Below, one piece after another: positions 1,580 through 53,368 of a DNA stretch of 64,000 bases. The notes beneath the pieces were generated by a model. That model worked only from the letters and a program-made list of their open reading frames with translations, did no database searches and had not been told where the DNA came from. Position 1 is the stretch's first letter; each line of letters begins with the position of its first letter. The position numbers and the translations under genes were made by a program. This DNA comes from an uncultured Thermoplasmatales archaeon (lineage in GTDB: Archaea; Thermoplasmatota; E2; DHVEG-1): positions 50,989 to 114,988 of the forward strand of contig CAYZTD010000001.1 of NCBI GenBank assembly GCA_964481275.1. The letters are read 5' to 3'.

Positions 1580-4438
1580 TTAAGAAATATTAAGTAATAA
1601 GAATTTTATTATCTCTGATAAAATTGGAAAACACTCTATAATTTTATTTGGAAAATTTGGAAAAATTGGTAATATTTCTTTAGTTGCAGATTTAGTTGTT
1701 TTCGGAGAAAGGTACAATGAACTTGATATTTCTTTACTTTCAGCACCGTGTTCATCTTTTACATTTACTGATACAGTAACATAAACAAAAGTCGGGAAAC
1801 CTGTTTGCGGATCAATTTCTAATTTGTCTCTTATATATATTTCGTTACTCCATGTATGAATTGCACTTACATTTTCCCCTGATTCAAATGGACCTAACCA
1901 TCTGCTATCTTCTAAAATCCATCTAATTGGTATATTATGAAAACCATCACATTCTACATAATCAAAATAAAACTGATAAAATACCTTATCTCCATCTGGA
2001 TCTGTAGTGCTACTAGTATATTCATATGGTGTATTTGGTTTATATTTATTTTCTCCAAATGGTTTTTTTGGTACTTTTGGTCTTTGATTATACTTAATTT
2101 CAACGGAAATTTCCTCAGAAAAATCAGTAAGAACTTGTTTTTTGTCTGTAGCTTTCACTTTTATTTTATAATTACCCGGTTCTTCATAGATATGTGAAGC
2201 AGTTGCTCTTTCACCAGATTCATATGGCCCTGTCCAACTATCTATCTTGTCATCATTATCCCAATCCCAACCGTAATAGATTTTGTCATCATCTGCGTCA
2301 TATGTAGTTGTTGAAAACTCACATGGTGCATAAGTATATGCCTTATTTTCATCAACAATTTCAGGTTTTTCAGGAGCAGCTGGTACATTGTTATCTAGTT
2401 TAACATGAAAATTAACTGCAGGATCTCCGAATAAATTCAAACCAGAGTGAACCATCCTAAAATCACCATATGTTAAAAAATGTAAACAATCTAATTTTGA
2501 GTCTTCATTTGCTTTGCCGATTGAAGTAATGTCCTCGTGAAATACTGCATCCCAGAACTCTCTATTATAACGTTGGGAGGCTCCATAAAATAGATCATAA
2601 AATCCCCAGCCATATCTAGCATTCCACAAACCTGCGAAAGCACTATAATTATTTTTTACAGTCATATACTCACCTATGCAATCATAAGACTTTAGCAAAT
2701 AATTGTAATCATCCAATGCACCTGAATTGCATGCTTGACTATAAATAAAAAAAGGTTTAGTATTTTTAATATCATCTAAGTCATTTGATTTACCACTTAT
2801 TATACCACTTTTTAATTTCCAAGGATGATCAAGTTTCATATTGTGAAATTCATTACCATGCCCGAGATGATTAATTATATGATAATTACTGTTGATTTTA
2901 TCTATTATATCAGATTTTTGCCAACCTGTTATTTCTGGTAAAAGAGGATGAAAACCATCAATATCTCTATCATATAATTTGTCTATTTCAAATTGATTAG
3001 AAGAAAATCCACTTGTTAAGGTTCTATATTTGAACTTGCCATTATCTTCTGGTTTATAAAAATAATCATCAATACATACATCTACTAATTGATCCATCCA
3101 ATTTCCCCCAAAATCTACACCATCTTCAACTCCCCAGTCTATAAAATCTAGATATTCTCCTACAAGAAGTATTTTGTCAAGATAAGGATCAGTTTCAGAT
3201 TGCATATATTCTAATGTTTTGTCTACAAAATTTTGAATTTCCTCTGAGTTGTCTACAGGTGCACGACCTACATATACTTCAGCTATGAAATCCATAAATT
3301 CCTCATCCCTTTCATTTTCATTTTTATAAAAACTATTATCAAGACCACTATAGTAATAATCTGTTGGAACATATTCACTATTCTCATCAGGATACATCTC
3401 AGCAAAGTAATATCTTACTGGTATTATACTAGTGTCACCACCAAGAAGCACGTATTCAATTCCTAGTTCTTGATAAGCGTATCTAATATAGTTTCTAATC
3501 CATGCTTGTAAATCATCAAATAAATATTCACTAGCAATATTTTCTGTAACAAATGGATTTTCAGGGTTTAAATCACCCCATTTACCTTCTAACTTAAAAT
3601 CAGGGTCATCTTTTATATCTTCAACTGTTTTAAAAAAAGTAGTAACTCCTGTATTATTGGTATGATAATCTGCTAATTCTTGGAAATCTGAAATAAAATC
3701 TTCAGATGTGATAATAACCATTTTACTATCTTCATTATCATCACTTAATAGGCCTTGATTTGGATTTTTATCTTTAGAATATGTTTTAATTGTTTGAGGA
3801 TTATCTACCATTTTATATAATGTATCTTCATCATTAATATTTTTACGAATTGATGTTAATTCTTTTTTATCTTCTGTTATTTTGACTGTTACTTTTAACT
3901 CTGGATAATAAAAAATTTCACCTGAACTTTCCAAATAACAAACAGGGTGTAAAGACAAAACAAGCATCTTATATCCATGGTATCTCTCAATGGAAACCTT
4001 GTTAAATAACTTATCAGGATAATAACTATTTGAACTATAAACTTGACTATCTTTATCATAATACTTAGATGATTTAATCTGTGATAATGGTAAGGGCTCT
4101 TTACCGATTTCAACTTTATAAAAACCATCTAATTTTATTTTTTCACCAGAAACTTCAACATTTTTTATTTCACGTCCGTCTGGAATCAGAATGTAAGCAC
4201 CATATGCTGGTAACCTGGGTTTGTTTGGTACATTAAAAATATAACATTTATCCATAAATATCCTATCATATTTTTTTCCTTTTTCCTCAATTTTTTTAAC
4301 TATGGGTTCACTAAAATAATAATTTAATGTAAGATTATCATTAACCTGTTCGGCATTTCCAATAACTATTGGAAATGAAGTAAATCCAGTTAATAAAAGT
4401 ACGATTATTATTCCTAAACATGTTAATTTCCCATTCAT
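1580..4438 (-). CDS. Secreted C25 (gingipain-like) cysteine peptidase with C-terminal PKD-like domains and conserved C-terminal tail
   Basis: His motif INHLGHGNEF and Cys motif KPFFIYSQACNSGA, as in gingipains. N-terminal signal peptide. PKD-like YGWDWDNDDKIDSWTGPYESGE. Track start 4447 is a GTG; the ATG at 4436-4438 preceded by 'gatgtgataaaa' is the more likely start. Confidence 0.55.
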   Translation of the reverse strand: MNGKLTCLGIIIVLLLTGFTSFPIVIGNAEQVNDNLTLNYYFSEPIVKKIEEKGKKYDRIFMDKCYIFNVPNKPRLPAYGAYILIPDGREIKNVEVSGEKIKLDGFYKVEIGKEPLPLSQIKSSKYYDKDSQVYSSNSYYPDKLFNKVSIERYHGYKMLVLSLHPVCYLESSGEIFYYPELKVTVKITEDKKELTSIRKNINDEDTLYKMVDNPQTIKTYSKDKNPNQGLLSDDNEDSKMVIITSEDFISDFQELADYHTNNTGVTTFFKTVEDIKDDPDFKLEGKWGDLNPENPFVTENIASEYLFDDLQAWIRNYIRYAYQELGIEYVLLGGDTSIIPVRYYFAEMYPDENSEYVPTDYYYSGLDNSFYKNENERDEEFMDFIAEVYVGRAPVDNSEEIQNFVDKTLEYMQSETDPYLDKILLVGEYLDFIDWGVEDGVDFGGNWMDQLVDVCIDDYFYKPEDNGKFKYRTLTSGFSSNQFEIDKLYDRDIDGFHPLLPEITGWQKSDIIDKINSNYHIINHLGHGNEFHNMKLDHPWKLKSGIISGKSNDLDDIKNTKPFFIYSQACNSGALDDYNYLLKSYDCIGEYMTVKNNYSAFAGLWNARYGWGFYDLFYGASQRYNREFWDAVFHEDITSIGKANEDSKLDCLHFLTYGDFRMVHSGLNLFGDPAVNFHVKLDNNVPAAPEKPEIVDENKAYTYAPCEFSTTTYDADDDKIYYGWDWDNDDKIDSWTGPYESGERATASHIYEEPGNYKIKVKATDKKQVLTDFSEEISVEIKYNQRPKVPKKPFGENKYKPNTPYEYTSSTTDPDGDKVFYQFYFDYVECDGFHNIPIRWILEDSRWLGPFESGENVSAIHTWSNEIYIRDKLEIDPQTGFPTFVYVTVSVNVKDEHGAESKEISSSLYLSPKTTKSATKEILPIFPNFPNKIIECFPILSEIIKFLLLNIS

Positions 4439-4552
4439 TTTTATCACATCTAAAAGTATTTTTATAAAAGATATTGTATTTAACTAATATTTATATTTTA
4501 TAGTACGATATTCCTCATAGAAATCTAGAAAAAATTTCTTAAGCAAAAATTA

Positions 4553-6151
4553 TTACGATCCGACACCTTCCATATATTCAGATGGTGTTTGAAAAAATGT
4601 TAAATCAAGAGCGCCCCAATCATTTGTATCATTTGGTCCATGACTGCCGTCCGAGTAGTCAAAGTATCGTTGTCTGAAGTAATCATAGTTCATGACACTC
4701 ACGTAGTCAAACCAGGGATAATCTGGGGGGTTGTTGTTTCTAACGCTTGCATTATCCACACCAGGTGAACTAATTCCTATGATTCCGAGTGAATGGCCGA
4801 GTTCGTGCAGTACTTGTACTGCTTGGCCAATACGTTTTGCTCGATCAGTAAGTGCTGCATTAAGCTGATTCATAAAGAATTTTTGATTGTGCGGAACAAC
4901 CATACAGTCATACCAATGATTTGAGTCCTGTGGATGACACCAGCCTCCGCCATAGGCAATTATAAGATATCGGAAAATACCTTTTCGGTCATCAGAAAAA
5001 TCATTAGCATAGTGTCCGGCAACAACACCTGTATCTTGATGGTATGCACCATTTCCACGGACAAATGGAAGGATGTCTCCCCCTTTACCCATACATCCAT
5101 CATCGATATGGACGGTAATTCCATGCTCATTGAATCTATCCATTAGCATTTGTTGCGATTCTTCATAGAATTCATGTTTCCATCCATCCCAACCATCTCG
5201 ATTAAATAATTTTTTTGGAGTTTGTTCCATATAATCTACTTCTATATAAATTTCAGGTTGATATGGATTGGCAAGCCACTCTTTTATATAGTATTCTTCC
5301 AAATTAGATAATCCATCATTATCGGGATCTAAATTTGCATGATCATCCCAATTGAATGGATCATATCCCCATTTCCATTCCCAGGAGGTAGGAATGCCGT
5401 CTCCATCAGGATCTAAGTAGGTATCATCAACAAGGGGGTCTGTTCCAAGTTCTATTTCTGCTAAATAAGGAATGATATCTCCATCTGCTGAGGTTTGATA
5501 GATGTAAAACCATACTTCAAAGTTTGTTCCATTAAAATGTCCATAGCCATCAGGGTCATTTAGGTAATCATCACCTATCCATCGACCGGTTCGAAAATCA
5601 TATTTAACAGTGAATGAATCTTGTTGCTTCTTTTTGATGTTGTTTCCAATCAGTTTATCAACTTTTACATTTTCAATAATAGAAAATTCAATTGTCGTAG
5701 TAGCCTGTTCATCTTCTACATTTCGAAAGATTTGTTGATTCATATAGCCAGTATCCCAGCTATCATATGTATCTTTTCCTTCCCATTTAAAATCATCAAA
5801 TTTAACTGCATAAAAATAACTTGGTTTTTCATCCCAGCCTTTGCCTTCTCTCAATCCATCAAGTATACTGCTCCATTCTTTACCAGCTGATCTTTGTGGT
5901 GAAACATCAAATATATTTTTCCCTGAGTTATACATCTGGTCAATTATACCTTTTTTTCTGATTCTATGTATCTCAAGAAATATCGCTTGATTAGTTAATG
6001 GACTTATTCGGTCATCTATCTTTTCTTCTTTTGAATTCTTTTTGTCTTCTTCTACATTAAATGTTACAAAGTATGATACTGTGGATATAAGTATTACAGC
6101 TATAAGTAAAAATATAGATATAATAGTTAAATTCTTTTTATTCATCGACAT
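4553..6151 (-). CDS. Secreted/membrane-anchored zinc metallopeptidase (HExxH) with DxDxDG calcium-binding-like motifs
   Basis: HELGHSLG zinc-binding motif. N-terminal TM LTIISIFLLIAVILISTV. DPDGDGIP and DPDNDGLSN motifs. Track start 6163 is a TTG; the ATG at 6149-6151 is more likely. Confidence 0.5.
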   Translation of the reverse strand: MSMNKKNLTIISIFLLIAVILISTVSYFVTFNVEEDKKNSKEEKIDDRISPLTNQAIFLEIHRIRKKGIIDQMYNSGKNIFDVSPQRSAGKEWSSILDGLREGKGWDEKPSYFYAVKFDDFKWEGKDTYDSWDTGYMNQQIFRNVEDEQATTTIEFSIIENVKVDKLIGNNIKKKQQDSFTVKYDFRTGRWIGDDYLNDPDGYGHFNGTNFEVWFYIYQTSADGDIIPYLAEIELGTDPLVDDTYLDPDGDGIPTSWEWKWGYDPFNWDDHANLDPDNDGLSNLEEYYIKEWLANPYQPEIYIEVDYMEQTPKKLFNRDGWDGWKHEFYEESQQMLMDRFNEHGITVHIDDGCMGKGGDILPFVRGNGAYHQDTGVVAGHYANDFSDDRKGIFRYLIIAYGGGWCHPQDSNHWYDCMVVPHNQKFFMNQLNAALTDRAKRIGQAVQVLHELGHSLGIIGISSPGVDNASVRNNNPPDYPWFDYVSVMNYDYFRQRYFDYSDGSHGPNDTNDWGALDLTFFQTPSEYMEGVGS

Positions 6152-6267
6152 TTTTTTATTCAAATATTAGCCCCCTTTTTGGCAGTTTTTTCTTATTATA
6201 TTATTTTTATCTAAAAAACTATATAAAACTTATAGAACAATAATCCTCAAGGAAATGATAAGAATAA

Positions 6268-6933
6268 TTAGCTATTCCTAAATTTTATTAATCTTTCTAA
6301 TAGTTTTGTAGATTGTATATAATCTTTGAGAAAATCAATAAATACCACTCTCGAAATTTTCTGTCTGTTATATGGAATCTTTATAGTTCGTTTTTCTGAA
6401 TCATTTCTGTGCCCAATAGGATTATCATAATTACCATTTGGATCATATATATCATAATCTACTTCGACATATGCTGTCAAATCTCTAGCACTATCAACGA
6501 TCCATGAATCAGAATCATCAACTGTACAACTTGGACTGTCACTGTCTCTACTATCAAAATATATTTTGTCCGTTGTAAACAAAACATTTTCCCCATCTGT
6601 AATATATGCTTTATAATATCCTACCAGTGGATGATAATATCCTGCACAAAAAATCTCGATTTGTTTGGTTGCATTAATCGTTAGTCTATCTCCTAGATTG
6701 ATATAAGGATCTACAAAAAAATCCCAAACCATAGCATTTGGATAATTTAGATTATAAGCATTATTTATTCTTAAACTGATAGATGCATGTTTTTCATTTG
6801 ATTTTATAATTTTATTTTGATTCAATTCTTGGATAGATTTTTTACATATACTCACTCCATCAACTGAAAAAAAATTAATACTAATCAGCAAAAATATACT
6901 TATAATTCCAATACATATCATTTTTTTCTTCAT
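6268..6933 (-). CDS. Small secreted hypothetical protein
   Basis: Signal peptide MKKKMICIGIISIFLLISINFFS. Shares the leader 'ggatgtgataaat' before ATG (track start 6942 is an upstream GTG). Promoter box at 6991-7012. Confidence 0.4.
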   Translation of the reverse strand: MKKKMICIGIISIFLLISINFFSVDGVSICKKSIQELNQNKIIKSNEKHASISLRINNAYNLNYPNAMVWDFFVDPYINLGDRLTINATKQIEIFCAGYYHPLVGYYKAYITDGENVLFTTDKIYFDSRDSDSPSCTVDDSDSWIVDSARDLTAYVEVDYDIYDPNGNYDNPIGHRNDSEKRTIKIPYNRQKISRVVFIDFLKDYIQSTKLLERLIKFRNS

Positions 6934-7248
6934 ATTTATCACATCCTTAGTCTTGTTTTTTTATATTTTTTGTTCCACATATTTAAAATTTTTAGTACAA
7001 CACTCCTCATAGAACATTTTAAATTTTAAAATAACATAATTTTAATAACAAAAAACATTTAATTCAGTTAATTTATTCCTTTTTAAATAGGATGGGATAA
7101 AACAAATGATAATTCAAGAAATTAATTTATTATTTTTTGGAATAGTTATCTTATTTTACTTTACATCTAAAAATCAAATTGGAGAAGTGATTAAATTATA
7201 GAAGAGAAAAATACAAATAAATCTTTAATCGCAAATTCTCTTAATACA

Positions 7249-8772
7249 GTGGTAAAAGGTTCGAGTTTTGTATTAATTGGATCTTTAATATCATCATTTT
7301 TACTTCTTCTTTTTAGTATATTAATTGCTAGATTTTACACAAAAAACGATCTTGGAATATTTACACTAGCCTTTTCATTTTTACAGCTTTTTTCAACAAT
7401 TGGAGCTTTAGGTATAACAAAAGGTGTCACTAGAAATATAGCATACTATAAAGGTAAAAAAAATTACAAAATACTTCCAGATATAATTTTTTCTTCAATT
7501 ATACTTACATTTATTGTAAGTTCAATAATGGCAGTTATATTATTTATCTCATCTAGTTATATAGCAGAGAATATATTTCATGAATCTTCCTTTAAATTAC
7601 CATTGATGATTTTTTCTATAGCAATTCCTATAAATAATTTAATCAATATTTTTGTATCGGTATTTAGAGGTTTTAACAATATCAAACCTATTGTTTATTT
7701 TCAACAAATATTACAAAATTTACTTTTCTTTTTATTTTTGATATCTTTAATTATTTCTAATGCAGCTTTTATCTATGTTTTTTATTTGTATTTAGCCTCT
7801 CTTTCTGTTACATGTTTAATATTGATAATATATGCATTAAAAAACAAATCAAAACTTGATATTTTATCTAATGTAAAAATTAGTTTTTCACAAGCAAAGC
7901 CTTTGCTTTTGTTTTCTCTTCCGTTACTTGCCGCTGCTTTACTAAATACATCTACAAACTGGGTTAACAACTTGATGCTTGGTGGATTGAAAACTGCTGC
8001 AGAAGTTGGATTATTCAAAGTGGCAGGAATTATAACTGGATTTATAGGTTTTCCTATTGGGATATTACTTGTTCTTTATATGCCGGTTGTTTCAAATCTG
8101 TTTGGATCAAATAAAATAAATGAAATCAAAAGAATTTACTCTGTTCTTACTAAATGGATTTGTTTTTTAACTTTACCTTTGTTTATATTTTTATTTATTT
8201 TCTCTGACTTGGTTATAGGTGCTATGTATGGAAAAGAGTATATTATTGCGGCAAATACTTTTAGAATATTGTCCGTTGCAACTATAATTACTAATTTTGC
8301 AGGACCTAACGGTGCTACACTTGTATCTATTGGAAAACCGCGATTTGTAATGTATTCTATTCTAGTTGCCTCTATAATAAATATTGTGTTGAATATTATT
8401 TTGATACCGCCTTATGGAATTGAGGGTGCAGCTATTTCAGTTACTATTGCATTACTTTCATTTAATATTATAAAATGTAGCATTCTTTATTTTTCAGTAG
8501 GTATAACATCTTTAAGTTACAATTTAATAAAACCAACTATTTCTACTATTGTAATACTTTGTATTTTATATGTCGTAATCAAAAACTTTTTCTCAATCAA
8601 AATCTGGATGTTGTCTATCTTTTTTATTGTTTTTTATCTTATTTATTTTTTATTTTTCTTAATTACTAAAAGTATTGATAAAGAAGACATTGAGATTATA
8701 AAAATCATTGGTAAAAAAATACATCTAAAAACAGATTTTTTAACAGATATTATGAATAAATTCAAAAATTAA
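7249..8772 (+). CDS. Polysaccharide/oligosaccharide flippase of the MOP superfamily (Wzx-like)
   Basis: 507 aa polytopic membrane protein. N-terminus SxxKGxxxxxGxxxSxxxxxxxxxLIARxLxxxxLG is typical of Wzx/PST-family proteins. About 14 hydrophobic segments. Confidence 0.65.
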   Translation: MVKGSSFVLIGSLISSFLLLLFSILIARFYTKNDLGIFTLAFSFLQLFSTIGALGITKGVTRNIAYYKGKKNYKILPDIIFSSIILTFIVSSIMAVILFISSSYIAENIFHESSFKLPLMIFSIAIPINNLINIFVSVFRGFNNIKPIVYFQQILQNLLFFLFLISLIISNAAFIYVFYLYLASLSVTCLILIIYALKNKSKLDILSNVKISFSQAKPLLLFSLPLLAAALLNTSTNWVNNLMLGGLKTAAEVGLFKVAGIITGFIGFPIGILLVLYMPVVSNLFGSNKINEIKRIYSVLTKWICFLTLPLFIFLFIFSDLVIGAMYGKEYIIAANTFRILSVATIITNFAGPNGATLVSIGKPRFVMYSILVASIINIVLNIILIPPYGIEGAAISVTIALLSFNIIKCSILYFSVGITSLSYNLIKPTISTIVILCILYVVIKNFFSIKIWMLSIFFIVFYLIYFLFFLITKSIDKEDIEIIKIIGKKIHLKTDFLTDIMNKFKN

Positions 8773-9413
8773 GAACGATATGGTATTGGAAAAATATCAA
8801 AAAATACATCTGTAACTTTGTCTAGCTTGTCTTTGTTGTTGCTGTCATCTATCCATTTTAAAAAACGACCGTGAGCATCTGATAGTATACTTTTATCATA
8901 TCTTATTATTAGATCATAAATTTCTTCAGGATTTTTAAGCCTATATCTAAGTTCTGAACTGTTGTTAATTAAGTTAAAAGATTCTATAATATTTTCTTCT
9001 AATAATTTTTTCAAATGAAATCCTAATGTTGTGCGATGTTTATTTAGGTTATATCCAATTTTTGAGGGATGATTCTTCCATTTTTTGGCAAATTCAATCA
9101 TTTCTTTTTGAGAAGATTCAAAATAGAGAAATAGGTAGAGTATAATATTACGAGGAACAGTTTCTCTTAGAATATTAAATAGCTTTTTATCATTTTTACC
9201 AATTTTTTGTGAAATGTAAAATCTTAGATATCCATTTTCAGATTCTTTTGATAGTAAATTTCTTTTTACAAGATAACCTAGATGATAAGACAGTGTAGAC
9301 GCAGGTATATTTAATGACCTTGATATTTTTCTGAAATGTACTCCTGGATTTTTCTTTATAAAATTGTATATATCTTTTCTTATTTTTACTTCAAATATTT
9401 TTTCTGTATACAT
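8769..9413 (-). CDS. Transcriptional regulator with two winged-helix (ArsR-like) HTH domains
   Basis: ISRSLNIPASTLSYHLGYLVKRNLL and HRTTLGFHLKKLLEENII resemble the ArsR-type HTH pattern. Embedded in the peptidase gene set. Confidence 0.5.
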   Translation of the reverse strand: MYTEKIFEVKIRKDIYNFIKKNPGVHFRKISRSLNIPASTLSYHLGYLVKRNLLSKESENGYLRFYISQKIGKNDKKLFNILRETVPRNIILYLFLYFESSQKEMIEFAKKWKNHPSKIGYNLNKHRTTLGFHLKKLLEENIIESFNLINNSSELRYRLKNPEEIYDLIIRYDKSILSDAHGRFLKWIDDSNNKDKLDKVTDVFFDIFPIPYRS

Positions 9414-9549
9414 ATTTTTACCAAATAATTAATTGTTCTGAGTTTTTGTTTGCCCTTATTATTAATATGTCAATAATTATATAAAAATATTTCTATTTAT
9501 TATGTAACTAATGAAAAAATATATTTTTATTTGATTAAATCTTTAATAT

Positions 9550-10224
9550 TTATGTTTTTTCTTTATAATCTAAAGAATATCTAGTCAAAAAATATGCCAT
9601 AAAAAACAAAACAATAGATCCAATAATCAAATAAAATCCATATCCAACATACCAAGCATCCATATAACCTAGATTGTTTACATCCTTCAAATAATTGATA
9701 TATATACCAGATATTATAACATAAACAAATATAATAATGAAAAGTATGGCATTATATAATATATATTTGTCTGGTTTATTTTCTATATTTTTGATAATTT
9801 TATAGCTAAAATAAATAAACAAGACAAAAAAGAAAAAGGAAATTAAAATCCTTGCCATATTTATTAATGAATTTGATAATTGTAAATTTTTATCGTTTTC
9901 TGATGAAATATCATAGTCTGATATAGATGTAAATTCACCTGTCGAGATTCCTGTTTCAAATTTTAAAAATTTGAATAGAATATATCTATGAAACTCTTGA
10001 GGTTTTTCAGAATTTCTGCAATCATATTCGCTAAAATGTGATAATAACATAGATGTTTCAGTTTTCCAATACAAATCAGGATTTTCATATCCATTTTGCT
10101 CTAAAACATCTGAGTAATCAAGACAACTGATTGGTGCAAAAAAAGATACAAACGCGAAAGAAATAGCCATAAGTATGATTATATTTAAAACAGTTTTTTT
10201 TGTTTTTTCTTTCATCCAATCCAC
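9550..10224 (-). CDS. Hypothetical integral membrane protein
   Basis: 224 aa, three or four hydrophobic helices, no recognisable motif. Confidence 0.35.
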   Translation of the reverse strand: MDWMKEKTKKTVLNIIILMAISFAFVSFFAPISCLDYSDVLEQNGYENPDLYWKTETSMLLSHFSEYDCRNSEKPQEFHRYILFKFLKFETGISTGEFTSISDYDISSENDKNLQLSNSLINMARILISFFFFVLFIYFSYKIIKNIENKPDKYILYNAILFIIIFVYVIISGIYINYLKDVNNLGYMDAWYVGYGFYLIIGSIVLFFMAYFLTRYSLDYKEKT

Positions 10225-10294
10225 ATAAATGAATTATTTACTTTGTTTTAATATTTTCTGATGAAAAAAATATTAATAATTTATTATGGAAAAT

Positions 10295-12121
10295 TTATAT
10301 ATTCTTAAAAATATCAATCAATCTTTTTATTATAATTAAATATTTAAAAAAAGCATTGCTGCTTTTTGGTACAGGTCGCTCTATTTTGCCCCAATCACTT
10401 GTAGCGCCATCTTCATCTTTAGCTTGGGCTTTAATTATATAATTTCCTTTTTTATTAAAAGTAATATCTACTGAATCAGATTCTTCACCTGGAACAAATG
10501 GACCAAACCAAGAACTTGGCTCGGGACTCATACTAAATTTTTCCTTTACAATATATCTATAGTAAACCTTTTCAAAATCTCCATTTTCATCAGAACTTCT
10601 AAATGTATATTTATAAGTCCCAAGTCCAATATCACCAGATGGTCCTGATATTTCAGGTGTTTCTGGCGCGACATTTTCTTTTATTATAAAATCGATTTTA
10701 ATGGATTTTTTATTACATTCTAAACATTCCTCTTTGTCCTTATCAATAAAAACAAGTTTACCTTCAAATTTTTCGTTGTTATTTCCATTTGTTTCAAATG
10801 AATAATTTACAAGAAATGTTCCATATTCGGGAGTTAACTTAAAAGGAGGATCACGCAGCCCATCTGTACTGTTATATGAAAAATCATTTCCATTTCCATC
10901 TTTAATAGACCTCCTCCATCCTAAAGATTGTGCAGGTATAGGATTAATACCCCAATTCAGTTTACTGCCAGGATGACCTATATTTGTAACATAAAAATTA
11001 AGACAGATTTTTTTATCTGGTTTTATATATCCTAAAGATAATTCTTCTTCTGATAAAGTTAATTTTGATTCAATTGATTTTTCTTCTATCCTTATACCAT
11101 CAAGATAATATGTATCATATTCAATAAAACAATTATTGTATTTTATCTTAAACCATCCGCCCTGGCTATCTTCATCATACGGATTTGGAATTCCCCAATT
11201 TTCACTCCAACTGTTTTTACAAATCCAGTAACCACCAGATGAAACATTTGAATCATCTTTATACCCAACAATAATTACATCATGATTTTGTATATCAGTA
11301 CAACCACCACCAGCTATATCTCCATATTTATGATAATACACATCTTCTTGCCATTCGTCTTCATTTGGATAATGCGGTATATTCTGGTTACTTCCATGAA
11401 GATCTTCATAAACTGTCATCTTAGTTGGAAGAGGTCCATATTGAATTAATGCATTTTTTAATGTTTCTTTATCTCTAGACAATTTATTAGCTGAATCAAT
11501 AAACACCCTGTAATCCTTCCAATCTTCACATTTTTCATCACAATTGCTATCGTCTGCAATATACGAAAAACAACTTTCATTTATTGCACCATAATTCTTA
11601 ATAAAATTTTGACTTGCCTCTAGTCTTCCACCCCTACAACCCTTGATATCATAAGGATAACAATTAGATCCGCACGAAAGAATAAATTGTTCAGACAAAT
11701 CAATATAAGTATTTGAATTCTTTTTTTCTTTAATTTTATATAAGCACTCTAAAACACCAATGGGGGCAAATGCATAACAACTACCACAAGCACCTTGATT
11801 TTTAATAGCTGTTGTCCAATCATATCCACTTTTGTTACCTGGTTCACCATATCCCGTACTTTCGTTTAAAAAAGCGTTTCGCCAATCAAAGCTTGAGGGA
11901 GTTTCACCAGAAAGTGTTTCGCCAGCTCCATCTGGCGAAAAATCAGATGAGTTTTCACCAAGACCATATTCAAAATTATTGTTATTACAAATAGAAAGAA
12001 GCTCGCTTGTTTCAGTAATATAATTATTATTTAGTTTCATATCTAAATTTATACTTGAAGCTTGAAAGCTACAAATAATCATTAATATAAAAATCATCAC
12101 TGGGGCAATTTTTGCGTTCAT
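10295..12121 (-). CDS. Secreted papain-like (C1A) cysteine peptidase with PKD-like C-terminal domain and conserved tail
   Basis: Active-site Cys QGACGSCYAFAP, His NHDVIIVGY, and NSWSENWG. Signal peptide. C-terminus RPVPKSSNAFFKYLIIIKRLIDIFKNI. ATG at 12119-12121 is preceded by 'aatgatgtgataaga'; the track's 12130 is a GTG extension. Confidence 0.8.
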   Translation of the reverse strand: MNAKIAPVMIFILMIICSFQASSINLDMKLNNNYITETSELLSICNNNNFEYGLGENSSDFSPDGAGETLSGETPSSFDWRNAFLNESTGYGEPGNKSGYDWTTAIKNQGACGSCYAFAPIGVLECLYKIKEKKNSNTYIDLSEQFILSCGSNCYPYDIKGCRGGRLEASQNFIKNYGAINESCFSYIADDSNCDEKCEDWKDYRVFIDSANKLSRDKETLKNALIQYGPLPTKMTVYEDLHGSNQNIPHYPNEDEWQEDVYYHKYGDIAGGGCTDIQNHDVIIVGYKDDSNVSSGGYWICKNSWSENWGIPNPYDEDSQGGWFKIKYNNCFIEYDTYYLDGIRIEEKSIESKLTLSEEELSLGYIKPDKKICLNFYVTNIGHPGSKLNWGINPIPAQSLGWRRSIKDGNGNDFSYNSTDGLRDPPFKLTPEYGTFLVNYSFETNGNNNEKFEGKLVFIDKDKEECLECNKKSIKIDFIIKENVAPETPEISGPSGDIGLGTYKYTFRSSDENGDFEKVYYRYIVKEKFSMSPEPSSWFGPFVPGEESDSVDITFNKKGNYIIKAQAKDEDGATSDWGKIERPVPKSSNAFFKYLIIIKRLIDIFKNI

Positions 12122-12258
12122 TCTTATCACATCATAATTTGTTTTTTTATTTTACTTTTATTAATATAAATATATAAAATTATTGGAACAATTTTCCTCA
12201 TGTATAGCAATAAAATGAAGTCAAAAACATTAATAAAGAATATACAATAGGGGGGAAT

Positions 12259-13635
12259 GTGGGGAACATTTTGACAAAAAATCAGAAAATTATAATAATT
12301 GGTTGTGGTGCAGGTGGAGGTACAGCTGCACAATTTGCAAGAAAAACAAATAGAAAAGCAAAAATAACAGTTTTTGAAAAAAATTCTTATCCACAATATT
12401 CCAAATGTGGTCTACCATATGCAATATCAGGTGACATACCAAAAATAATGGATTTAATAGAATTCTCAGAAGAATGGTTCAAAAAAGCAAATATACACCT
12501 AAATCTTGATACAACTGTTGAAAAAATAGATATCTCGAAAAAAACTGTTTATGCAAAAAAAGAAGATAAAAATATTACAGAAAATTTCGATTCACTTATA
12601 ATATCTACAGGTGCAAAACCATCTTTTCCTCCAATTAAGAATATAGATCTTAAAGGTGTTTTTTCTCTTAGAACAATTGATGATGCAAAAAAAATCAAAT
12701 CTTTTGCTAAAAAAGATACAAAAGCAACAATCGTAGGTGCCGGACTTATTGGTATGGAGATGGCTGATAATCTTTTTAAAATGGGATTAAAAGTGACAAT
12801 TGTAGAAGCATTAGAAAATATCCTTGCAACAAATCTTGACAAAGATATGTCAAAACTTGTATCAAACGAAGTTCCAGACGAAATAAAAATTTATACAAAT
12901 CATCTTGCAACAAAAGCTGAAGATAAAAATGGAACTATCAACAGTATTGTAATTAAAAATAAAGATAATAATGAAGAACAAAAAATTGAAACCAATCTAT
13001 TAATAGTCGCAACTGGTACTAAACCAGAAACATCACTTGCAGAAAAAATAGGATGTAAAATTGGAAAAACTAAAGCAATAATTGTAAATAATAAATCAGA
13101 GACAAACATTCCTAGAGTTTATGCAGTAGGTGACTGTACAGAATATGTAGGATATATTACAAAAAAACCAATATTAGTTGGATTAGGAAGCATAGTTGTA
13201 AGACAAGGAATAGCTGCTGGTACAAATGCAGCGGGTGGAAAATATGTTCTACCAAAAGGTTTTCTAAATACGTTTACATCAGAATTTTTTGATAAAGAAA
13301 TAGCAGGGGTAGGAGTATCTTCAGCTTGCAGAGATTTAGATTATATCTCTGCAAAATACAATGGAGAATCTCTTCCACATTATTTCCCGGGTGGAAAAAA
13401 AATATCAATAAAAGTTTATGCTGATAAAAAAACAGAAAAAATCATAGGTGCTCAATCTGTTGGTGACAAAGCAGCGCAAAGAATCAATACATTTGCAGCA
13501 GCAATAATGGGAAATTTAGATATAAATACATTTAGAAAACTTGAAACAGCATATGCACCACCAATAGCACCAACTCTTGATGCAGAAACACTAGTTTGTG
13601 ATATTTTAGATATGAAACTAAAACGTAAAAGATAG
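12259..13635 (+). CDS. FAD-dependent pyridine nucleotide-disulfide oxidoreductase (CoA-disulfide reductase / NADH oxidase family)
   Basis: GxGxxG IIIIGCGAGGGTAAQFA. Single redox Cys in SKCGLPYA. Second NAD(P) fold IVGAGLIGMEMAD. GGGGGG SD-like run upstream; GTG start. Confidence 0.7.
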   Translation: MGNILTKNQKIIIIGCGAGGGTAAQFARKTNRKAKITVFEKNSYPQYSKCGLPYAISGDIPKIMDLIEFSEEWFKKANIHLNLDTTVEKIDISKKTVYAKKEDKNITENFDSLIISTGAKPSFPPIKNIDLKGVFSLRTIDDAKKIKSFAKKDTKATIVGAGLIGMEMADNLFKMGLKVTIVEALENILATNLDKDMSKLVSNEVPDEIKIYTNHLATKAEDKNGTINSIVIKNKDNNEEQKIETNLLIVATGTKPETSLAEKIGCKIGKTKAIIVNNKSETNIPRVYAVGDCTEYVGYITKKPILVGLGSIVVRQGIAAGTNAAGGKYVLPKGFLNTFTSEFFDKEIAGVGVSSACRDLDYISAKYNGESLPHYFPGGKKISIKVYADKKTEKIIGAQSVGDKAAQRINTFAAAIMGNLDINTFRKLETAYAPPIAPTLDAETLVCDILDMKLKRKR

Positions 13636-13648
13636 GATTAAGGTAACT

Positions 13649-14791
13649 ATGAAAATTTTACATACAGCTGATTCACATTTGGGATATGCAGCATACAGAA
13701 AATCCACAGAAGAAGGTATAAACCAACGTGAAAAAGACGTTTACAACGCCTTTGAACAATTTATAAACTATGCAATTGAAAAAAAACCTGATTTAATAAT
13801 TCACGCAGGGGATTTATTTGATTCAGTAAGACCAAACAATAGAGCAATAACATTTGCCATAAAACAGATGGTTAGAATTTCAAAAGAAAAAATACCTTTT
13901 GTTCTTATCTCTGGAAACCATGAACAACCTAAACTAAAAGAAACAGGACATATTTTTAGTGTTTTTGATCACATAGATAATATCTATCCAATATACAACG
14001 AAGAATATGAAAAAATATCATTTGGTATAAATGATAAAAAAATAATTGTTCATGCTCTGCCCCAATGCAATTCCAAAAAAAGTTTTAATGAACAGCTTAA
14101 AAAATTAAAACCAGAAAAAAATGCTGATTACAATTTTTTAACATCTCATGGTTCTGTAACAGGTTTACAAGATTTTACTATGAATGAGTTCAATGAACTT
14201 ATAATACCTGCAAGGATTCTTTCAAGAAGTTTTGATTATATAGCTCTTGGGCACTATCATAGATATACAAAATTAGCAGATAATTCATATTATTCAGGAG
14301 CAATAGAAAGTCTTACATTTTCTGAGGCAAATGAAAACAAAGGTTTTTTAGAACTAAATATAGAAAAAAACAAAATATCAAAAAATTTTATAGAATTAAA
14401 AACTAGACCTATGATTGATTCAGAACCAATAGAATGTTCAGAATTGAAAATAGATCAAATAATGAAAAAAATCAAACAACAGGCAAAAAAAATAAAACCT
14501 AAAGAAAAGACAGTTAGAATAACACTTAAAGATATTTCACCAAATCTCTATCGAAATCTAAATTTTGATGATATAAGACAAGACTTTGGAGATGCGATAC
14601 ACTATGAAATAAAAGTAGATGTAAAAGAAAAAGATACTGCATCGTCTACTTTTTCTAATTCAAAGATAAATGCTTTAGCAAATGAATTTAAAGATTTTAT
14701 TGAAAAACAAAATATTGAAGATAAAAAAATTCTAGCTGATATGGGAATAGGTTATATAGAAAAAATAGAGGCAAAAAAAGAAGGTAAATAA
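13649..14791 (+). CDS. mre11: DNA double-strand break repair nuclease Mre11
   Basis: N-terminal phosphoesterase motifs MKILHTADSHLG, IIHAGDLFD, GNHE. Stop overlaps the rad50 start (TAATG). Confidence 0.85.
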   Translation: MKILHTADSHLGYAAYRKSTEEGINQREKDVYNAFEQFINYAIEKKPDLIIHAGDLFDSVRPNNRAITFAIKQMVRISKEKIPFVLISGNHEQPKLKETGHIFSVFDHIDNIYPIYNEEYEKISFGINDKKIIVHALPQCNSKKSFNEQLKKLKPEKNADYNFLTSHGSVTGLQDFTMNEFNELIIPARILSRSFDYIALGHYHRYTKLADNSYYSGAIESLTFSEANENKGFLELNIEKNKISKNFIELKTRPMIDSEPIECSELKIDQIMKKIKQQAKKIKPKEKTVRITLKDISPNLYRNLNFDDIRQDFGDAIHYEIKVDVKEKDTASSTFSNSKINALANEFKDFIEKQNIEDKKILADMGIGYIEKIEAKKEGK

Positions 14792-16896
14792 TGCTATTGA
14801 AGAATCTTACGCTCAAAAATTTTCGAAAATTCAAAAACATAACTATTGATTTTCCTGATGGAGTAACTGGAGTAGTAGGCCTAAATGGAGTTGGAAAATC
14901 AACTATTTTTGAAGCAATAGCCTGGGTTTTATATGGACCTGTTGCAGCAAGAACATCTGCAGATGAAATAAAAAGACAAGATGCAGATGAAAAAGAAAAC
15001 TGTAGGGTAGAACTTGATTTTATTTTTGAAGAAGAAAAATTTAGGGTAGTAAGAGAAATCAAAGGAAAAAGCCTTACAACATCAGCAACAGCAACAATAA
15101 ATGGAAAAGTTGCAGCAACTGGCGCGGATGTAGTTACAAAATATATGCAAAAAAAACTAGGAATGGATTTCAAATCATTTTTTACAAGTATCTTTGCAAA
15201 GCAAAAAGAGCTAAACACTTTGTCATCTATGAATGCAAGTGAAAGAAGACCACTGATTCTTAGAATGCTTGGTATAGATTCTCTTGATGAAATAATAAAG
15301 GAAATAAGATCGGACAGGAGAAATAAAGATGCTTTGATTGAAAAATTAAATGACGATTTGACAGATGAAAAAGGAGAAAACAAAAAAGAAATATATGAAA
15401 GAAAAATAAAAGAAAATAAAAAAAATAAGGAAGAAATAGATAAAGAAATCAAAAAATTAAAAGATAAAATAAAAGAATACAAAAAAGAATTTGAAAAGTT
15501 GGAAAAAAAATATATTGAAAATAAAAAACAATATGAAAAACTAAACAAAGAAAAAGAAGAACTGTCAGAGAGAAAAACTCTTTTTGAAAAAAAAGAAAAA
15601 TTACAGACAGAAATAGATGAACTTAAAAATAAAATTGAGGAAAGAAATAAAAAACTCGATTCTAAAAGAAAAGAATTAAATGGTTTTGAAAATATAGAAC
15701 AAGATTTTAAATCATCTGAAATGCGTTTGGAGGATATCGAAAATCATATTGAAAAACTTTTAAAAGCAATTGAAAAAAATAAGGCTTTTTCAGATCGTTT
15801 AAAAGAAGATTTATCAAATGTTGAAACAAAAAAGAATAAAGTCAAAAAAATAGGCCCTGATGCAAAATGTCCAACCTGTGAAAGAGTTCTTTCCGAGCAA
15901 TATAATGTTTTATTAAAAAAATTTGATGAAGAAACAAAAAAACATGAAAAACAAATTGAAAAATATGGAAAAGAAATAAAACTAAAAGAAGAAGAAAAAG
16001 AACGTATACAACGTGAAAGAAACGCTCTTCGTAAAAAAAGACTGTATCTTGAGAAAAGACTTAGAGAAAAAGAGGGAATTGATATAACAATTCGTCATAT
16101 TGAATCTGAAATTAAAAAAGAAAGATTTGATTTTGAAACAAAAAAGAAACTTCTGAAAGATATGGGTAAAATAGATTTTGATTATAAAGAATACGAATCA
16201 TTAAAGAAAAAAGTACAAAAATCATATGAATCCTATCAAGAATCATTGGAATTATTTAATAACAAAAAAGATGATTTATCTAATATTAATTTAGATTTAG
16301 AAAAAAAACAAGGAGAAATAAAACTTATCAAGCAAAATATTAGGAATTTAAAAGAAAAAATAGATGAGATTGATAAATATAAAAAGAAAATAAAAGAAGA
16401 AAAAAATGCTGTCAGATATCTTGGAATGCTCTCCGATGTTATGAATGATTTTAGAACATATCTTATCTCTCGTATTAGACCTACTTTATCTTCTTATGCA
16501 TCTGATTTTTATAGAAGACTTACTGATGGCAAGTATAACGAAATAGAACTTGATGAAAACTACAATCTTTTAGTTTATGATAAAGGAGAAATTTTTGGAA
16601 TTGAAAGATTTTCGGGTGGTGAAGAAGATCTAGCAAATCTTTGTTTGCGTCTTGCGATATCTGAAGTTATAACAGAACGAGCGGGTGGAGTTTTCAACTT
16701 TATTATACTTGATGAAATATTTGGATCACAAGACAATATACGCCGGCAAAATATAATGAAAACATTAAACAGGCTCTCATCAAAATTCCGTCAGATTTTT
16801 TTGATTACTCACATTGAAGATGTTAAAAATTATGTAGAAAATGTAATTAAAGTATATGAAGGAGATAGCGGGACTAGTAGTATTAAAATAGAATAG
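14791..16896 (+). CDS. rad50: DNA repair ATPase Rad50 (short coiled-coil variant)
   Basis: Walker A GLNGVGKSTIFEAI, zinc-hook CPTC in the coiled-coil, signature/D-loop FSGGEEDLANLCLRLA...LILDE. Translationally coupled to mre11. Confidence 0.85.
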   Translation: MLLKNLTLKNFRKFKNITIDFPDGVTGVVGLNGVGKSTIFEAIAWVLYGPVAARTSADEIKRQDADEKENCRVELDFIFEEEKFRVVREIKGKSLTTSATATINGKVAATGADVVTKYMQKKLGMDFKSFFTSIFAKQKELNTLSSMNASERRPLILRMLGIDSLDEIIKEIRSDRRNKDALIEKLNDDLTDEKGENKKEIYERKIKENKKNKEEIDKEIKKLKDKIKEYKKEFEKLEKKYIENKKQYEKLNKEKEELSERKTLFEKKEKLQTEIDELKNKIEERNKKLDSKRKELNGFENIEQDFKSSEMRLEDIENHIEKLLKAIEKNKAFSDRLKEDLSNVETKKNKVKKIGPDAKCPTCERVLSEQYNVLLKKFDEETKKHEKQIEKYGKEIKLKEEEKERIQRERNALRKKRLYLEKRLREKEGIDITIRHIESEIKKERFDFETKKKLLKDMGKIDFDYKEYESLKKKVQKSYESYQESLELFNNKKDDLSNINLDLEKKQGEIKLIKQNIRNLKEKIDEIDKYKKKIKEEKNAVRYLGMLSDVMNDFRTYLISRIRPTLSSYASDFYRRLTDGKYNEIELDENYNLLVYDKGEIFGIERFSGGEEDLANLCLRLAISEVITERAGGVFNFIILDEIFGSQDNIRRQNIMKTLNRLSSKFRQIFLITHIEDVKNYVENVIKVYEGDSGTSSIKIE

Positions 16897-16900
16897 AAAT

Positions 16901-17854: not shown

Positions 17855-18044
17855 AAATAATCATGCCTCCCGACCAATCAGGGAATAGATAATGGTCTTG
17901 TTGATATTTAAGGATTTTCATAAAAATAAATATAAATTAAATCCTTATTTAACATTAAATAAAATTAATACCATTAAACTAATAAACCATAATATAGATA
18001 CAAGATTTGGGTAATTATTCCTAATTTTTAGGAGGTGTAGCTGG

Positions 18045-18701: not shown

Positions 18702-18707
18702 ATCTAA

Positions 18708-19085
18708 ATGACTAAAAAAAATAACGGTATTTCTTTTAACCTTGTTTCTAAAGATAAATTAGAAAACTTTTCATCTGATGAGAAACTTAAATTTATAATT
18801 AAAGAAATCAAAAAAGGAAAAATTCTTGTTTTAGAATGCGGTCTAACTCCTATGGAACAGACTAATTTGATAGAAAAAACAATGAGAGAAATCAAGCAGG
18901 ATACTTTTATTGGAGTTGAAATGGAAGGTTATAGTCCGGAAAATACTTCTTTTATTAAGAGAATACTTGGTATTTCTTCTAAACCCCGTATGACGCTGGT
19001 AGGACCTGCTGATCTATTAAAAATGGTTAAAAAAGACAATGATATGATTCAAACTAAAATTATTCCTGGTAAGGGAGCAAAATAA
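18708..19085 (+). CDS. Conserved archaeal protein (DUF2073-like) co-operonic with the GTPase
   Basis: 125 aa, AGGAGGT SD, 6-nt gap from the GTPase gene. Family assignment is from memory only. Confidence 0.4.
   Translation: MTKKNNGISFNLVSKDKLENFSSDEKLKFIIKEIKKGKILVLECGLTPMEQTNLIEKTMREIKQDTFIGVEMEGYSPENTSFIKRILGISSKPRMTLVGPADLLKMVKKDNDMIQTKIIPGKGAK

Positions 19086-20634: not shown

Positions 20635-21544
<910 letters not shown>

Positions 21545-53368: not shown

Follow-up and report, generated by a model that had tools for sequence, protein, structure and literature searches.

A portable C-terminal tail on exported proteins of Thermoplasmatota, with a predicted amphipathic helix-proline-helix hairpin

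Tail-bearing genes in the window

The window, i.e. the whole 64-kb stretch of DNA that was analysed, contains 8-9 copies of a short C-terminal tail, and the carriers are designated below by their lowest coordinate (Table 1). The eight C-terminal peptides quoted by the first-pass annotation were found verbatim at the ends of their ORFs by inspection of the window ORFs and re-translation of the tail coordinates, and the upstream regions were assigned by Pfam as it had claimed, to C25, C1 (four proteins), S8 and C14 peptidases and a beta-propeller protein. A ninth carrier, at 6268, was added here. All nine have a basic-then-hydrophobic, signal-like segment at the N-terminus, as called by a hydropathy heuristic that is distinct from SignalP. 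A PKD-like domain, which had been said to precede the tail, is usually but not always found there: the last domain of 37717-41127 has a different Ig-like fold. The GC content of the window is ~30%. The feature common to the window tails was also tested as a DNA repeat and is not one.

Table 1. Tail-bearing genes and their tails in the window (asterisk, stop codon)
Feature	Position	Strand	Tail	Pfam match	Remark
C25 gingipain-like peptidase with tail	1580..4447	-		Peptidase_C25, 1.6e-50	
C25 protein tail	1580..1708	-	SPKTTKSATKEILPIFPNFPNKIIECFPILSEIIKFLLLNIS*		short 'E(R/C)FPxLxxII' variant
Small exported protein, 224 aa, signal-like N-terminus	6268..6942	-			ninth tail carrier, new relative to the first-pass annotation; no Pfam or NCBIfam match
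Small protein tail	6268..6375	-	PYNRQKISRVVFIDFLKDYIQSTKLLERLIKFRNS*		
C1 papain-like peptidase with short tail	10295..12130	-		Peptidase_C1, 7e-29	PKD-like last domain
C1 10295 short tail	10295..10375	-	PVPKSSNAFFKYLIIIKRLIDIFKNI*		
Beta-propeller/PKD protein with tail	37717..41127	+		WD40/beta-propeller and PKD	last domain not PKD-like; also from alignment
Beta-propeller protein tail	41026..41127	+	KQTKTKSGFIDDYFTFKNPLIKQILIKLFELLI*		
C1 peptidase with tail	41133..43433	+		Peptidase_C1, 1e-35	PKD-like last domain; paralogue of 46354-48570
C1 41133 tail	43320..43433	+	PTPKSKDKNIVLEPIFRNLLKLFFSDCSIFGYLKINL*		central Pro absent
C1 peptidase	43527..46277	+		Peptidase_C1, 4.6e-48	true PKD domains
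Doubtful tail of C1 43527	46152..46277	+	VRKSKSKMLFRFLEITGLFNIDISFIMEILYFFDSLLFIDS*		position and basic cluster as in the family
C1 peptidase with tail	46354..48570	+		Peptidase_C1, 3.8e-50	paralogue of 41133-43433
C1 46354 tail	48457..48570	+	PTPKLKDKNIFIEPLIRQLLKLFVSGYSIFESLLTIL*		
S8 subtilase with canonical tail	48755..51226	+		Peptidase_S8, 2e-54	signal-like N-terminus; PKD domains
S8 protein tail	51125..51226	+	TMPKSKSETNSFISQLLSRLPFLESLLSFLYTS*		
C14 caspase-like peptidase with canonical tail	51245..53368	+		Peptidase_C14, 7e-22	PKD domain
C14 protein tail	53267..53368	+	SMPKTKQIVKTDLTDFLMQKYPLLYYILNILKK*		

Statistical tests of the window tails

For the profile test, each window tail was scored with an HMM built from 126 tails of other genomes only and compared with 2000 shuffles of itself. 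For the pairwise test, the last 40 aa of all 33 large window ORFs were compared by BLOSUM62 with the same 126 external tails. Pairwise z values of at least 2.5 were confined to 1580, 6268, 10295, 37717, 41133, 46354, 48755 and 51245, and the 24 large ORFs other than these and 43527 reached 1.6 at most; since every cytoplasmic ORF of the window is among the latter, the occurrence of the tail on cytoplasmic proteins, named earlier as a possible refutation, was not observed.

The S8 tail (48755) and the C14 tail (51245) gave 25.0 and 20.4 bits with the external HMM, 0/2000 shuffles being as good in both cases, and pairwise z values of 11.3 and 12.3, respectively; both read as very strong family matches, and the S8 subtilase, judged from its sequence, is the best family member within the window. 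The tail at 6268 gave 13.6 bits, 1/2000 shuffles and z=5.6. On the pairwise comparison, the C25 tail (1580; z=5.8, 0/300 shuffles) and the C1 tail of 46354 (z=3.5, 0/300 shuffles on the top-10 mean) qualify as clear matches, with HMM results of 131/2000, which is weak, and 35/2000, respectively. Modest matches are indicated for the C1 tails of 41133 (z=2.5; HMM, 8/2000) and 10295 (z=3.2 with 17/300 shuffles; HMM, 112/2000) and for the beta-propeller tail of 37717 (z=2.6 with 6/300 shuffles; HMM, 61/2000); the second helix of the 10295 tail appears truncated. For the C-terminal extension of 43527-46277, family membership could not be demonstrated: 673/2000 shuffles did as well in the HMM test (not significant), the pairwise z value was 0.2, the maximal KD(19) of 1.77 exceeds the hydrophobicity of the family, and a search for a close homologue with the same tail found none.

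Because of these HMM shuffle and pairwise results, seven of the eight quoted tails are backed (two strongly, two clearly and three modestly), one is not and one member is added, so that the earlier claim of a module common to all eight proteins stands with the exception of 43527-46277. The formal profile search, which had been set beforehand as a possible refutation, was significant for the best tails.

Consensus, position and distribution of the tail

The tail is a genuine, widespread module on exported proteins of Thermoplasmatota. Its consensus consists of P-[KR]-x-[KR], a spacer of 5-10 residues and FLxFLE[RN][FH]PxxFP[IL]L[RQ]xLLGL, followed by the stop codon. It is clear in a set of ~200 tails, drawn from many genomes, in which synonymous changes are abundant. 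Column conservation runs M 84%, P 95%, [KR] 84%, x, [KR] 79%, E/Q 76%, P 60%, F 60% and P 52%, and P[KR]x[KR] is also retained behind non-PKD domains. Related loci come almost all from Thermoplasmatota MAGs, and of 80 Thermoplasmatota loci, 75 have an ORF that stops 27-42 aa past WSDPLS[VI] with a single consensus tail.

One match per protein was obtained with the tail HMM, multi-PKD proteins included, and in 56 of 59 proteins the distance between the end of the match and the C-terminus was 0-11 aa. Over 596 kb, 87 matches were recorded, compared with 0 in the reversed control, and 84 of them lay within 7 aa of the C-terminus; of 125 matches to FPNAFP[IL]L in a tail-anchored metagenome scan, 109 were placed 3-11 aa ahead of the stop codon. 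Chromosome CP070836.1 (1.79 Mb) carries at least 12 tail loci, as counted with one strict 10-aa pattern. The description of the tail as a portable C-terminal module of secreted proteins is thus borne out: it is strictly terminal, single-copy, present many times per genome and joined to unrelated cargo. Tail codons show 204 synonymous and 215 non-synonymous differences (251 and 368 in the adjacent domain), and the tail is under selection at the protein level. In certain paralogous pairs, tail similarity exceeds that of the adjacent domain.

Predicted structure and hydropathy

AF2 models of two tails share one layout, i.e. a beta-sandwich, a linker and two helices. In the S8 protein (119-aa query), a low-confidence linker at PKSKS is followed by helices of ~12 residues at 94-105 and 107-118 (pLDDT 81-86), and in C1 41133 a helix at 95-108, a break and a helix at 112-119 were obtained (pLDDT 56-69). 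A helix-Pro-helix hairpin, with two short amphipathic helices joined at the conserved Pro, is therefore what these models predict, and the amphipathic character proposed earlier agrees with them and with a hydrophobic moment of 0.635, as against 0.504 for shuffles. As had been supposed, the tail is not a TM helix: it is too polar, with a mean maximal KD(19) of 0.77 (1 of 126 tails reaches 1.6; a true TM anchor inside the window has 2.42) and ~4 charged residues in its helical part.

Export, cargo and the preceding domain

The tail is limited to exported proteins. An N-terminal hydrophobic segment was called in 62 of 71 complete carriers by the hydropathy heuristic; among 29 apparent signal exceptions there were 17 contig-edge truncations, 5 ORFs that start at a non-ATG codon and are hydrophobic at the N-terminus, and 3 masked cases. 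Cargo includes C25, M14, PAD_porph, M28, S8, S12, S15, C1, C14, beta-helix, FG-GAP, beta-propeller and BNR domains. Tail and C-terminal TM anchor were never found together (0/143 vs 36/180, p=1.5e-10), an exclusivity that is partly trivial, the C-terminus being occupied by either.

The usual neighbour before the tail is a domain matched by the Pfam PKD models (PF00801/PF18911), with 44% identity to 4XED from Thermoplasmatales archaeon SCGC AB-540-F20 (Foldseek E=3e-8, TM 0.82; phmmer 1.2e-18). This PKD domain is a separate and far commoner unit (24,698 clusters), which is also bacterial and often in tandem, whereas the tail stands behind the last PKD copy only, in a subset only, and also without PKD; 21 tails have no PKD-like domain.

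Comparison with known systems

Nothing on the tail was found in Pfam, NCBIfam, the PDB or the literature searched, and no NCBIfam model, including PGF-CTERM, PEP-CTERM and the other CTERM models, matched the window and canonical tails at E<=10; the stated difference from PGF-CTERM, PEP-CTERM and T9SS C-terminal domains (CTDs) therefore holds, in that the tail belongs to no curated family. With LPXTG/sortase, PEP-CTERM/exosortase, PGF-CTERM/archaeosortase A, GlyGly-CTERM/rhombosortase and MYXO-CTERM/myxosortase it shares a small terminal homology domain in many copies on proteins with signal peptides, otherwise unrelated architectures and a signature motif at the start. Unlike these tripartite signals, it has no TM-length helix, places its basic residues before the hydrophobic part and ends in LLGL instead of an Arg cluster, and no cognate enzyme was found, i.e. 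no recurrent membrane enzyme among the neighbours of 209 tail genes (1.3 Mb). When the seven Haft criteria for small C-terminal sorting domains were applied (10.1101/2023.06.07.544157), position, copy number, conserved P-[KR]-x-[KR] motif, signal peptide and unrelated cargo pairs were as in such domains; the TM-length hydrophobic region and the terminal basic cluster were absent. A tag design of basic hinge and amphipathic helix-Pro-helix with no TM segment is outside current curated sorting-signal models.

E. coli PBP5 is reportedly attached to the membrane by a C-terminal amphipathic helix. The anchors of PBP5 and PBP6 resemble the tail in that an exported enzyme ends in a short, non-TM amphipathic segment, which for the tail consists of predicted helices; the PBP anchors attach their enzymes peripherally to the cytoplasmic membrane, on its outer side. 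Two helices, a conserved Pro and the P-[KR]-x-[KR] hinge in front distinguish the tail, as does residue conservation across dozens of unrelated cargo per genome; to our knowledge, PBP anchors form no common portable family. A bipartite C-terminal membrane-association motif has been described for the alpha-amylase of Sulfolobus solfataricus and other crenarchaeal secreted proteins, and membrane retention of a secreted archaeal hydrolase by a C-terminal motif leads to better use of polymer substrates (PMC5023256). Both that motif (PMC5023256) and the tail are short, C-terminal and common to several archaeal secreted proteins, but in the former a hydrophobic region is followed by charges, whereas in the tail, which is amphipathic and from Thermoplasmatota, the charges come first.

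The cargo overlaps strongly with that of the T9SS (C25 gingipain-like, PAD_porph, M14 and M28 proteins), and the Ig-like domain at the C-terminal end and the abundance of C25 peptidases are further points of likeness. The T9SS CTD of Bacteroidota is a beta-sandwich of ~80 aa that serves in outer-membrane translocation and is removed by the C25-family sortase PorU. The tail, in contrast, has 30-35 aa, is predicted to be helical and occurs in single-membrane archaea, and no Por_Secre_tail/TIGR04183 or other CTD match was found in the carriers with Pfam and NCBIfam. The C25 peptidases scored 43-55 bits against PorU models with cut-offs of 420-450, consistent with family-level homology only. The dockerin, a duplicated Ca-binding F-hand segment (Pfam Dockerin_1), was rejected as an identity for the tail, with no Pfam match at E<=10 and a consensus that has no Ca-binding Asp/Asn pattern.

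Proposed function and alternatives

Few archaea of marine and freshwater sediments are as abundant as Thermoprofundales (MBG-D) and related Thermoplasmatota, which are thought to live on detrital protein that they degrade by extracellular peptidases (PMC6461988). The question at stake is how enzymes and products are retained near an uncultured, single-membrane cell. Our preferred reading, with a probability of roughly 45%, is that the tail hairpin retains Sec-exported enzymes non-covalently at the cell envelope. After Sec export, the N-terminal signal being removed or kept, the P-[KR]-x-[KR] hinge and the following ~25 residues, as two short amphipathic helices, would form a hairpin that lies in the outer membrane face and/or docks on one common envelope partner; the basic hinge would be placed at the anionic surface, and extracellular peptidases, other hydrolases and their products would be held near the cell. 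The exposed Lys/Arg-rich hinge could double as a release or maturation site. Surface retention, the partner and any cleavage are what we infer from the sequences and models. Against this reading, the conservation of E, P, FP, R/Q and GL is higher than amphipathic helices that bind lipid only usually show, and recognition by a protein, be it receptor or enzyme, would account for it no less well. P-[KR]-x-[KR], which hardly varies, resembles an enzyme recognition site, and the predicted hairpin might pack on the preceding domain instead.

The main rival to surface retention, which we regard as possible though rather doubtful, is a cleaved sorting signal: an envelope enzyme would read P-[KR]-x-[KR] and the hairpin, remove the tail and possibly link the cargo covalently to a lipid, a glycan or the S-layer, by the logic of sortase, archaeosortase and PorU with a different signal design. 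Five of the seven Haft features are seen in the tail (10.1101/2023.06.07.544157). Its greater conservation than that of the adjacent domain in certain paralogues would be expected of one common reader, and C25 peptidases, to which the T9SS sortase PorU belongs, abound in these genomes. However, an intramembrane protease of known kinds is unlikely, as there is neither a TM-length hydrophobic segment nor a terminal basic cluster, and the neighbourhood and PorU-model results given above also argue against a cleaved signal. Were a new archaeal sorting system at work, with a dedicated enzyme, possibly a PorU-like C25 transpeptidase or one of another kind, that cuts the hinge and attaches the hydrolases covalently, dozens of hydrolases per cell would sit on surface lipid or glycan through a sorting signal without a transmembrane segment, unlike the sortase/exosortase-type signals described to date; we consider this unlikely. 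Much the same low probability is given to a dockerin-like module, by which the hairpins of many different hydrolases would dock on one scaffold or S-layer receptor and so build up a cell-bound multi-enzyme degradative complex. Residue-specific conservation over unrelated cargo, a single, always terminal module per protein, a coherent set of extracellular hydrolases and a cohesin domain in one carrier speak for it; there is no dockerin or other Pfam match, nothing in the same neighbourhoods (209 tail genes, 1.3 Mb) looked like a receptor with complementary modules in repeat, and 25 residues are small for a specific high-affinity interface.

An intramolecular role is still less probable, in which a C-terminal pro-peptide caps the last Ig-like domain, or keeps the enzyme inactive or soluble in export, and is later trimmed. 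Pro-peptides are common in S8, C25 and C1 peptidases, the basic hinge is probably protease-sensitive, and the helix pLDDT is fairly high in the domain context; but the domains in front of the tail are unrelated to one another (PKD, C25 directly, FG-GAP, beta-helix and an unannotated beta-domain) and non-enzymes carry it as well, so a domain-specific cap or inhibitor is unlikely, and crystals of the PKD domain were obtained with the tail absent (4XED, ending ..VTMPK). The absence of any specific function, with the likeness arising from composition (K/I/L/F/N-rich ends in a low-GC genome) and recent paralogy, is hardly credible. It could draw on the window GC of ~30%, on the 41133 and 46354 tails being recent paralogues and on the fact that 43527, with two more in the HMM test, did no better than shuffles. 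Yet 7/8 tails exceed composition-keeping shuffles, 0/24 other window ORF ends score, the reversed control gave 0 matches and the consensus persists through abundant synonymous change over ~200 tails of many genomes; this reading is effectively refuted for the family and possible only for 43527-46277.

Whether retained as we prefer or processed, the tail marks a set of exported hydrolases with many copies per genome. Because curated models miss the tag, the present annotation of its carriers goes no further than 'PKD domain protein' or 'hypothetical'. The tail offers a sequence handle for questions of retention versus release and of the partner or processing enzyme, and also for cataloguing the surface and secreted degradome in MAGs.

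Tail carriers in the window

The window has a GC content of about 30% and is archaeal, and the relatives of its proteins were found almost only in Thermoplasmatota MAGs. A Logan contig of run SRR15425350 carries a stretch of genes identical to the window. Genes for exported peptidases are densely packed here. The eight secreted proteins for which the first-pass annotation had claimed a common C-terminal module were re-translated; all eight quoted C-termini were recovered verbatim at the ORF ends, and the upstream domains named for them were agreed by Pfam (Table). Each of the eight N-termini shows a basic and then a hydrophobic, signal-like segment. The term tail is used below for the basic hinge P-[KR]-x-[KR] and the approximately 25 residues between it and the stop codon.

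Within the plus-strand peptidase run (35814-61096), GC was 0.33-0.34 versus 0.27-0.29 in positions 1-24000, and GC skew was strongly positive. Neither tRNA nor Rfam features were found across the whole 64 kb.

Table. Tail carriers and other genes of the window, with scores of the tails against the HMM of external tails
Feature	Position	Strand	Domain assignment	HMM score (bits)	Shuffles as good
C25 peptidase	1580-4447	-	Pfam		131/2000
Small exported protein, tail carrier absent from the first-pass list	6268-6942	-	no Pfam/NCBIfam domain	13.6	1/2000
C1 peptidase	10295-12130	-	Pfam		112/2000
Vps62-like exported protein	35814-37595	+			
Beta-propeller plus PKD protein	37717-41127	+	Pfam		61/2000
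C1 peptidase	41133-43433	+	Pfam		8/2000
C1 peptidase	43527-46277	+	Pfam		673/2000
C1 peptidase	46354-48570	+	Pfam		35/2000
S8 peptidase	48755-51226	+	Pfam	25.0	0/2000
C14 peptidase	51245-53368	+	Pfam	20.4	0/2000
C25 peptidase, first half-ORF	53513-54886	+			
C25 peptidase, second half-ORF	54959-56794	+			
1097-aa protein	57803-61096	+	no convincing family match		

Statistical support for the shared tail

When the last domain and tail of the S8 peptidase were used as the query, Thermoplasmata fragments with a much sharper consensus (e.g. ..WSDPLSVSMPKNKAINTSFLRFLENHPHLFPLLRQLLELK) were obtained. Scanning for the pattern [EVQ]SxWSDPLS[VI], with one genome per species, gave 80 loci, nearly all from Thermoplasmatota and at least 12 of them in the 1.79-Mb chromosome CP070836.1. 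The ORF ended 27-42 residues past this motif in 75 of the 80 loci, and the tails were alignable. Tail-only alignment in a word-indexed protein search gave a single match, because E-values were scaled to 5.8 billion sequences.

A tail HMM was built from external tails only (n=126), and each window tail was compared with 2000 shuffles of itself. In this formal profile search the S8 and C14 tails were equalled by none of their shuffles. Because the tail family has sub-variants, a pairwise comparison was added, in which the last 40 amino acids of every large ORF in the window were set against the 126 external tails. Exactly eight ORFs reached z≥2.5, namely those starting at 1580, 6268 (z=5.6), 10295, 37717, 41133, 46354, 48755 and 51245; ORF 43527 gave z=0.2, and the remaining 24 large ORFs, including all cytoplasmic ones, gave z≤1.6; the tail was absent from the cytoplasmic proteins among them. 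The HMM and pairwise results therefore support seven of the eight tails of the first-pass list, fail to support one, and reveal one further carrier. The claim of a common tail was not supported for the C1 peptidase 43527-46277, whose membership is doubtful; a homologue search with its C-terminus gave a single match, covering PKD only.

Domain in front of the tail

The tail is usually preceded by a PKD variant with 44% identity to PDB 4XED. The sole solved relative (compared with window 50864-51226), 4XED represents the PKD domain in an M14-like peptidase of Thermoplasmatales archaeon SCGC AB-540-F20, known from a single-cell genome. Residues 13-99 of the 99-residue crystallised chain were aligned by phmmer; the chain stops exactly at ..VTMPK, and thus the solved structure is without the tail. 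The PKD-like domain is spread far more widely than the tail, being present in 24,698 protein clusters, and as many as 52 tandem copies were found in a single protein of 5395 aa; bacterial proteins with this domain have other kinds of C-termini. Among the proteins with the domain (P0022-P0171) are some whose C-termini resemble bacterial T9SS-type ends or TM sorting ends that terminate in Arg.

In a tail-anchored scan of metagenome contigs, the distance between FPNAFP[IL]L and the stop was 3-11 residues (mode 6) for 109/125 matches. The PKD-like domain stood ahead of the tail in 79 of these. The other tails came after FG-GAP repeats, after an unannotated beta-domain, straight after a C25 domain or at the end of a beta-helix protein. 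At seven metagenome loci (L091, L125, L149, L161, L167, L181 and L185), a second, unannotated beta-rich domain with the pattern ..VxVxAP..FxGxIxVxN..DxCxIxVxLxTP[KR]x[KR] replaces the PKD-like domain directly before the tail. No Pfam match was obtained in any of the four scanned carriers (L125, L161, L185 and L181), and that at L091 gave only a weak Ig-like match, further upstream. Since this domain also ends in TP[KR]x[KR], the basic hinge is part of the tail and not of the PKD domain.

Anatomy and predicted structure

By column, the hinge consensus is [ST]-M(84%)-P(95%)-[KR](84%)-N-[KR](79%), followed by a spacer of 5-10 residues; the helical part reads [LF][LF]xx[FL][LF]-E/Q(76%)-[RN]-[FH]-P(60%)-x-x-F(60%)-P(52%)-[LI]-L-[RQ]-x-L-L-G-L and then stop. 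Counted from the last beta-strand, tail length is 33.8 ± 3.1 residues. For the S8 domain plus tail, AlphaFold2 predicted a beta-sandwich and, beyond a linker of low confidence at PKSKS, helices at 94-105 and 107-118, both with pLDDT of 81-86; the tail of the C1 peptidase at 41133, without Pro, was predicted as the same helix-break-helix at lower confidence.

The view that the tail is no classical TM anchor was borne out by hydropathy: maximum KD(19) averaged 0.77, which excludes a TM anchor, and reached 1.6 or more in only 1/126 tails. The hydrophobic moment, proposed earlier for analysis, was 0.635 for the tails and 0.504 for shuffles. A real TM anchor is found in the window in the Vps62-like protein, where it is C-terminal and classical (KD19 2.42) and is followed by a long charged tail; the genome would thus use both styles of anchoring.

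Position, cargo and selection

The tail is a conserved, portable and strictly C-terminal helix-Pro-helix with a basic hinge, confined to exported proteins and under selection at the protein level. The HMM matched once per protein, at the extreme C-terminus, and in 596 kb of loci it found 87 ORFs versus 0 in the reversed control. Cargo in other genomes comprised C25, M14, PAD_porph, M28, S8, S12, S15, C1 and C14 as well as choloylglycine-hydrolase-like, BNR and beta-propeller proteins, as anticipated for a portable module. An N-terminal hydrophobic segment, called by a hydropathy heuristic, was present in almost all carriers, the exceptions being mostly truncated or mis-started ORFs. The tail and a C-terminal TM anchor never occurred together (0/143 vs 36/180).

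Over 24 pairs, 204 synonymous and 215 non-synonymous differences were counted in tail codons versus 251 and 368, respectively, in the adjacent domain, and in some paralogues the tail was more alike than the domain. Constraint on tail codons is at least as strong as that on the adjacent domain. A DNA-level repeat or terminator as the source of the similar ends was rejected, as tail DNA is not conserved and synonymous changes are plentiful.

Comparison with known sorting systems

With whole proteins, window tails and canonical tails as queries, no Pfam or NCBIfam model matched the tail at E≤10, in agreement with its earlier placement outside the PGF-CTERM, PEP-CTERM and T9SS consensus sequences, and no description of it was found in the literature searched by motif strings and related topics. 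Measured against the Haft criteria for small C-terminal sorting domains, the tail agrees in where it lies, how often it occurs, the motif at its start, the signal peptides of its carriers and the range of its cargo, but it lacks a hydrophobic helix of TM length and a terminal Arg cluster. These architectural differences and the lack of a model match thus place it outside sortase/exosortase-type signals, the T9SS CTD and dockerins.

Porphyromonas gingivalis proteins with the T9SS C-terminal domain include C25 gingipain-like, peptidyl-arginine deiminase, M14 and M28 enzymes. Tail cargo at loci L002-L081 of other Thermoplasmatota (C25 gingipain-like, Porphyromonas-type peptidyl-arginine deiminase, M14 and M28) mirrors this set, which suggests that the cargo genes have a common ancestry and that the targeting module was swapped.

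Proposed role

In function the tail would be closest to a common C-terminal tag for anchoring or sorting, of new design, and sequence analysis, within its reach, supports the first-pass interpretation. An enzyme that a single-membrane archaeon exports through Sec would be lost unless held, and non-covalent retention at the envelope would therefore be the most economical role. We infer that the tail holds exported enzymes there in this manner. The amphipathic hairpin could bind the membrane interface and/or dock to one common partner, and the basic hinge would be located at the anionic surface and might be a release site. Precedents for the tail as an anchor are the C-terminal anchor of E. coli PBP5, which is reportedly amphipathic, and the C-terminal motif of the S. 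solfataricus alpha-amylase. The alpha-amylase motif leads to membrane association and better growth on starch (PMC5023256).

A serious rival is a sorting tag that is cleaved off, with which the residue-specific conservation of the tail and the nearly invariant P[KR]x[KR] are consistent; however, no candidate enzyme was found near 209 tail genes. Clustering of neighbours at 80 and then 201 loci for a processing enzyme turned up nothing but further secreted hydrolases and housekeeping genes without a pattern. A PorU-like sortase among the C25 genes of the window was rejected, since these scored 43-55 bits against cut-offs of 420-450, a similarity at family level only.

Other genes in the window

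One C25 peptidase is split over two ORFs. The first contains the propeptide and stops halfway through the catalytic domain (ending ..GHGSPTE), and the second, after a gap of 73 nt, contains the rest of C25 and Ig-like domains. The identical split was found on an independent Logan contig (L001); the gene may be a pseudogene or carry a frameshift, or it may encode an enzyme of two chains. The N-terminus of the 1097-aa protein (..KKNEAVSAVIGTILIISIVM..) resembles the class III signal peptides of archaea, which are type IV pilin-like.
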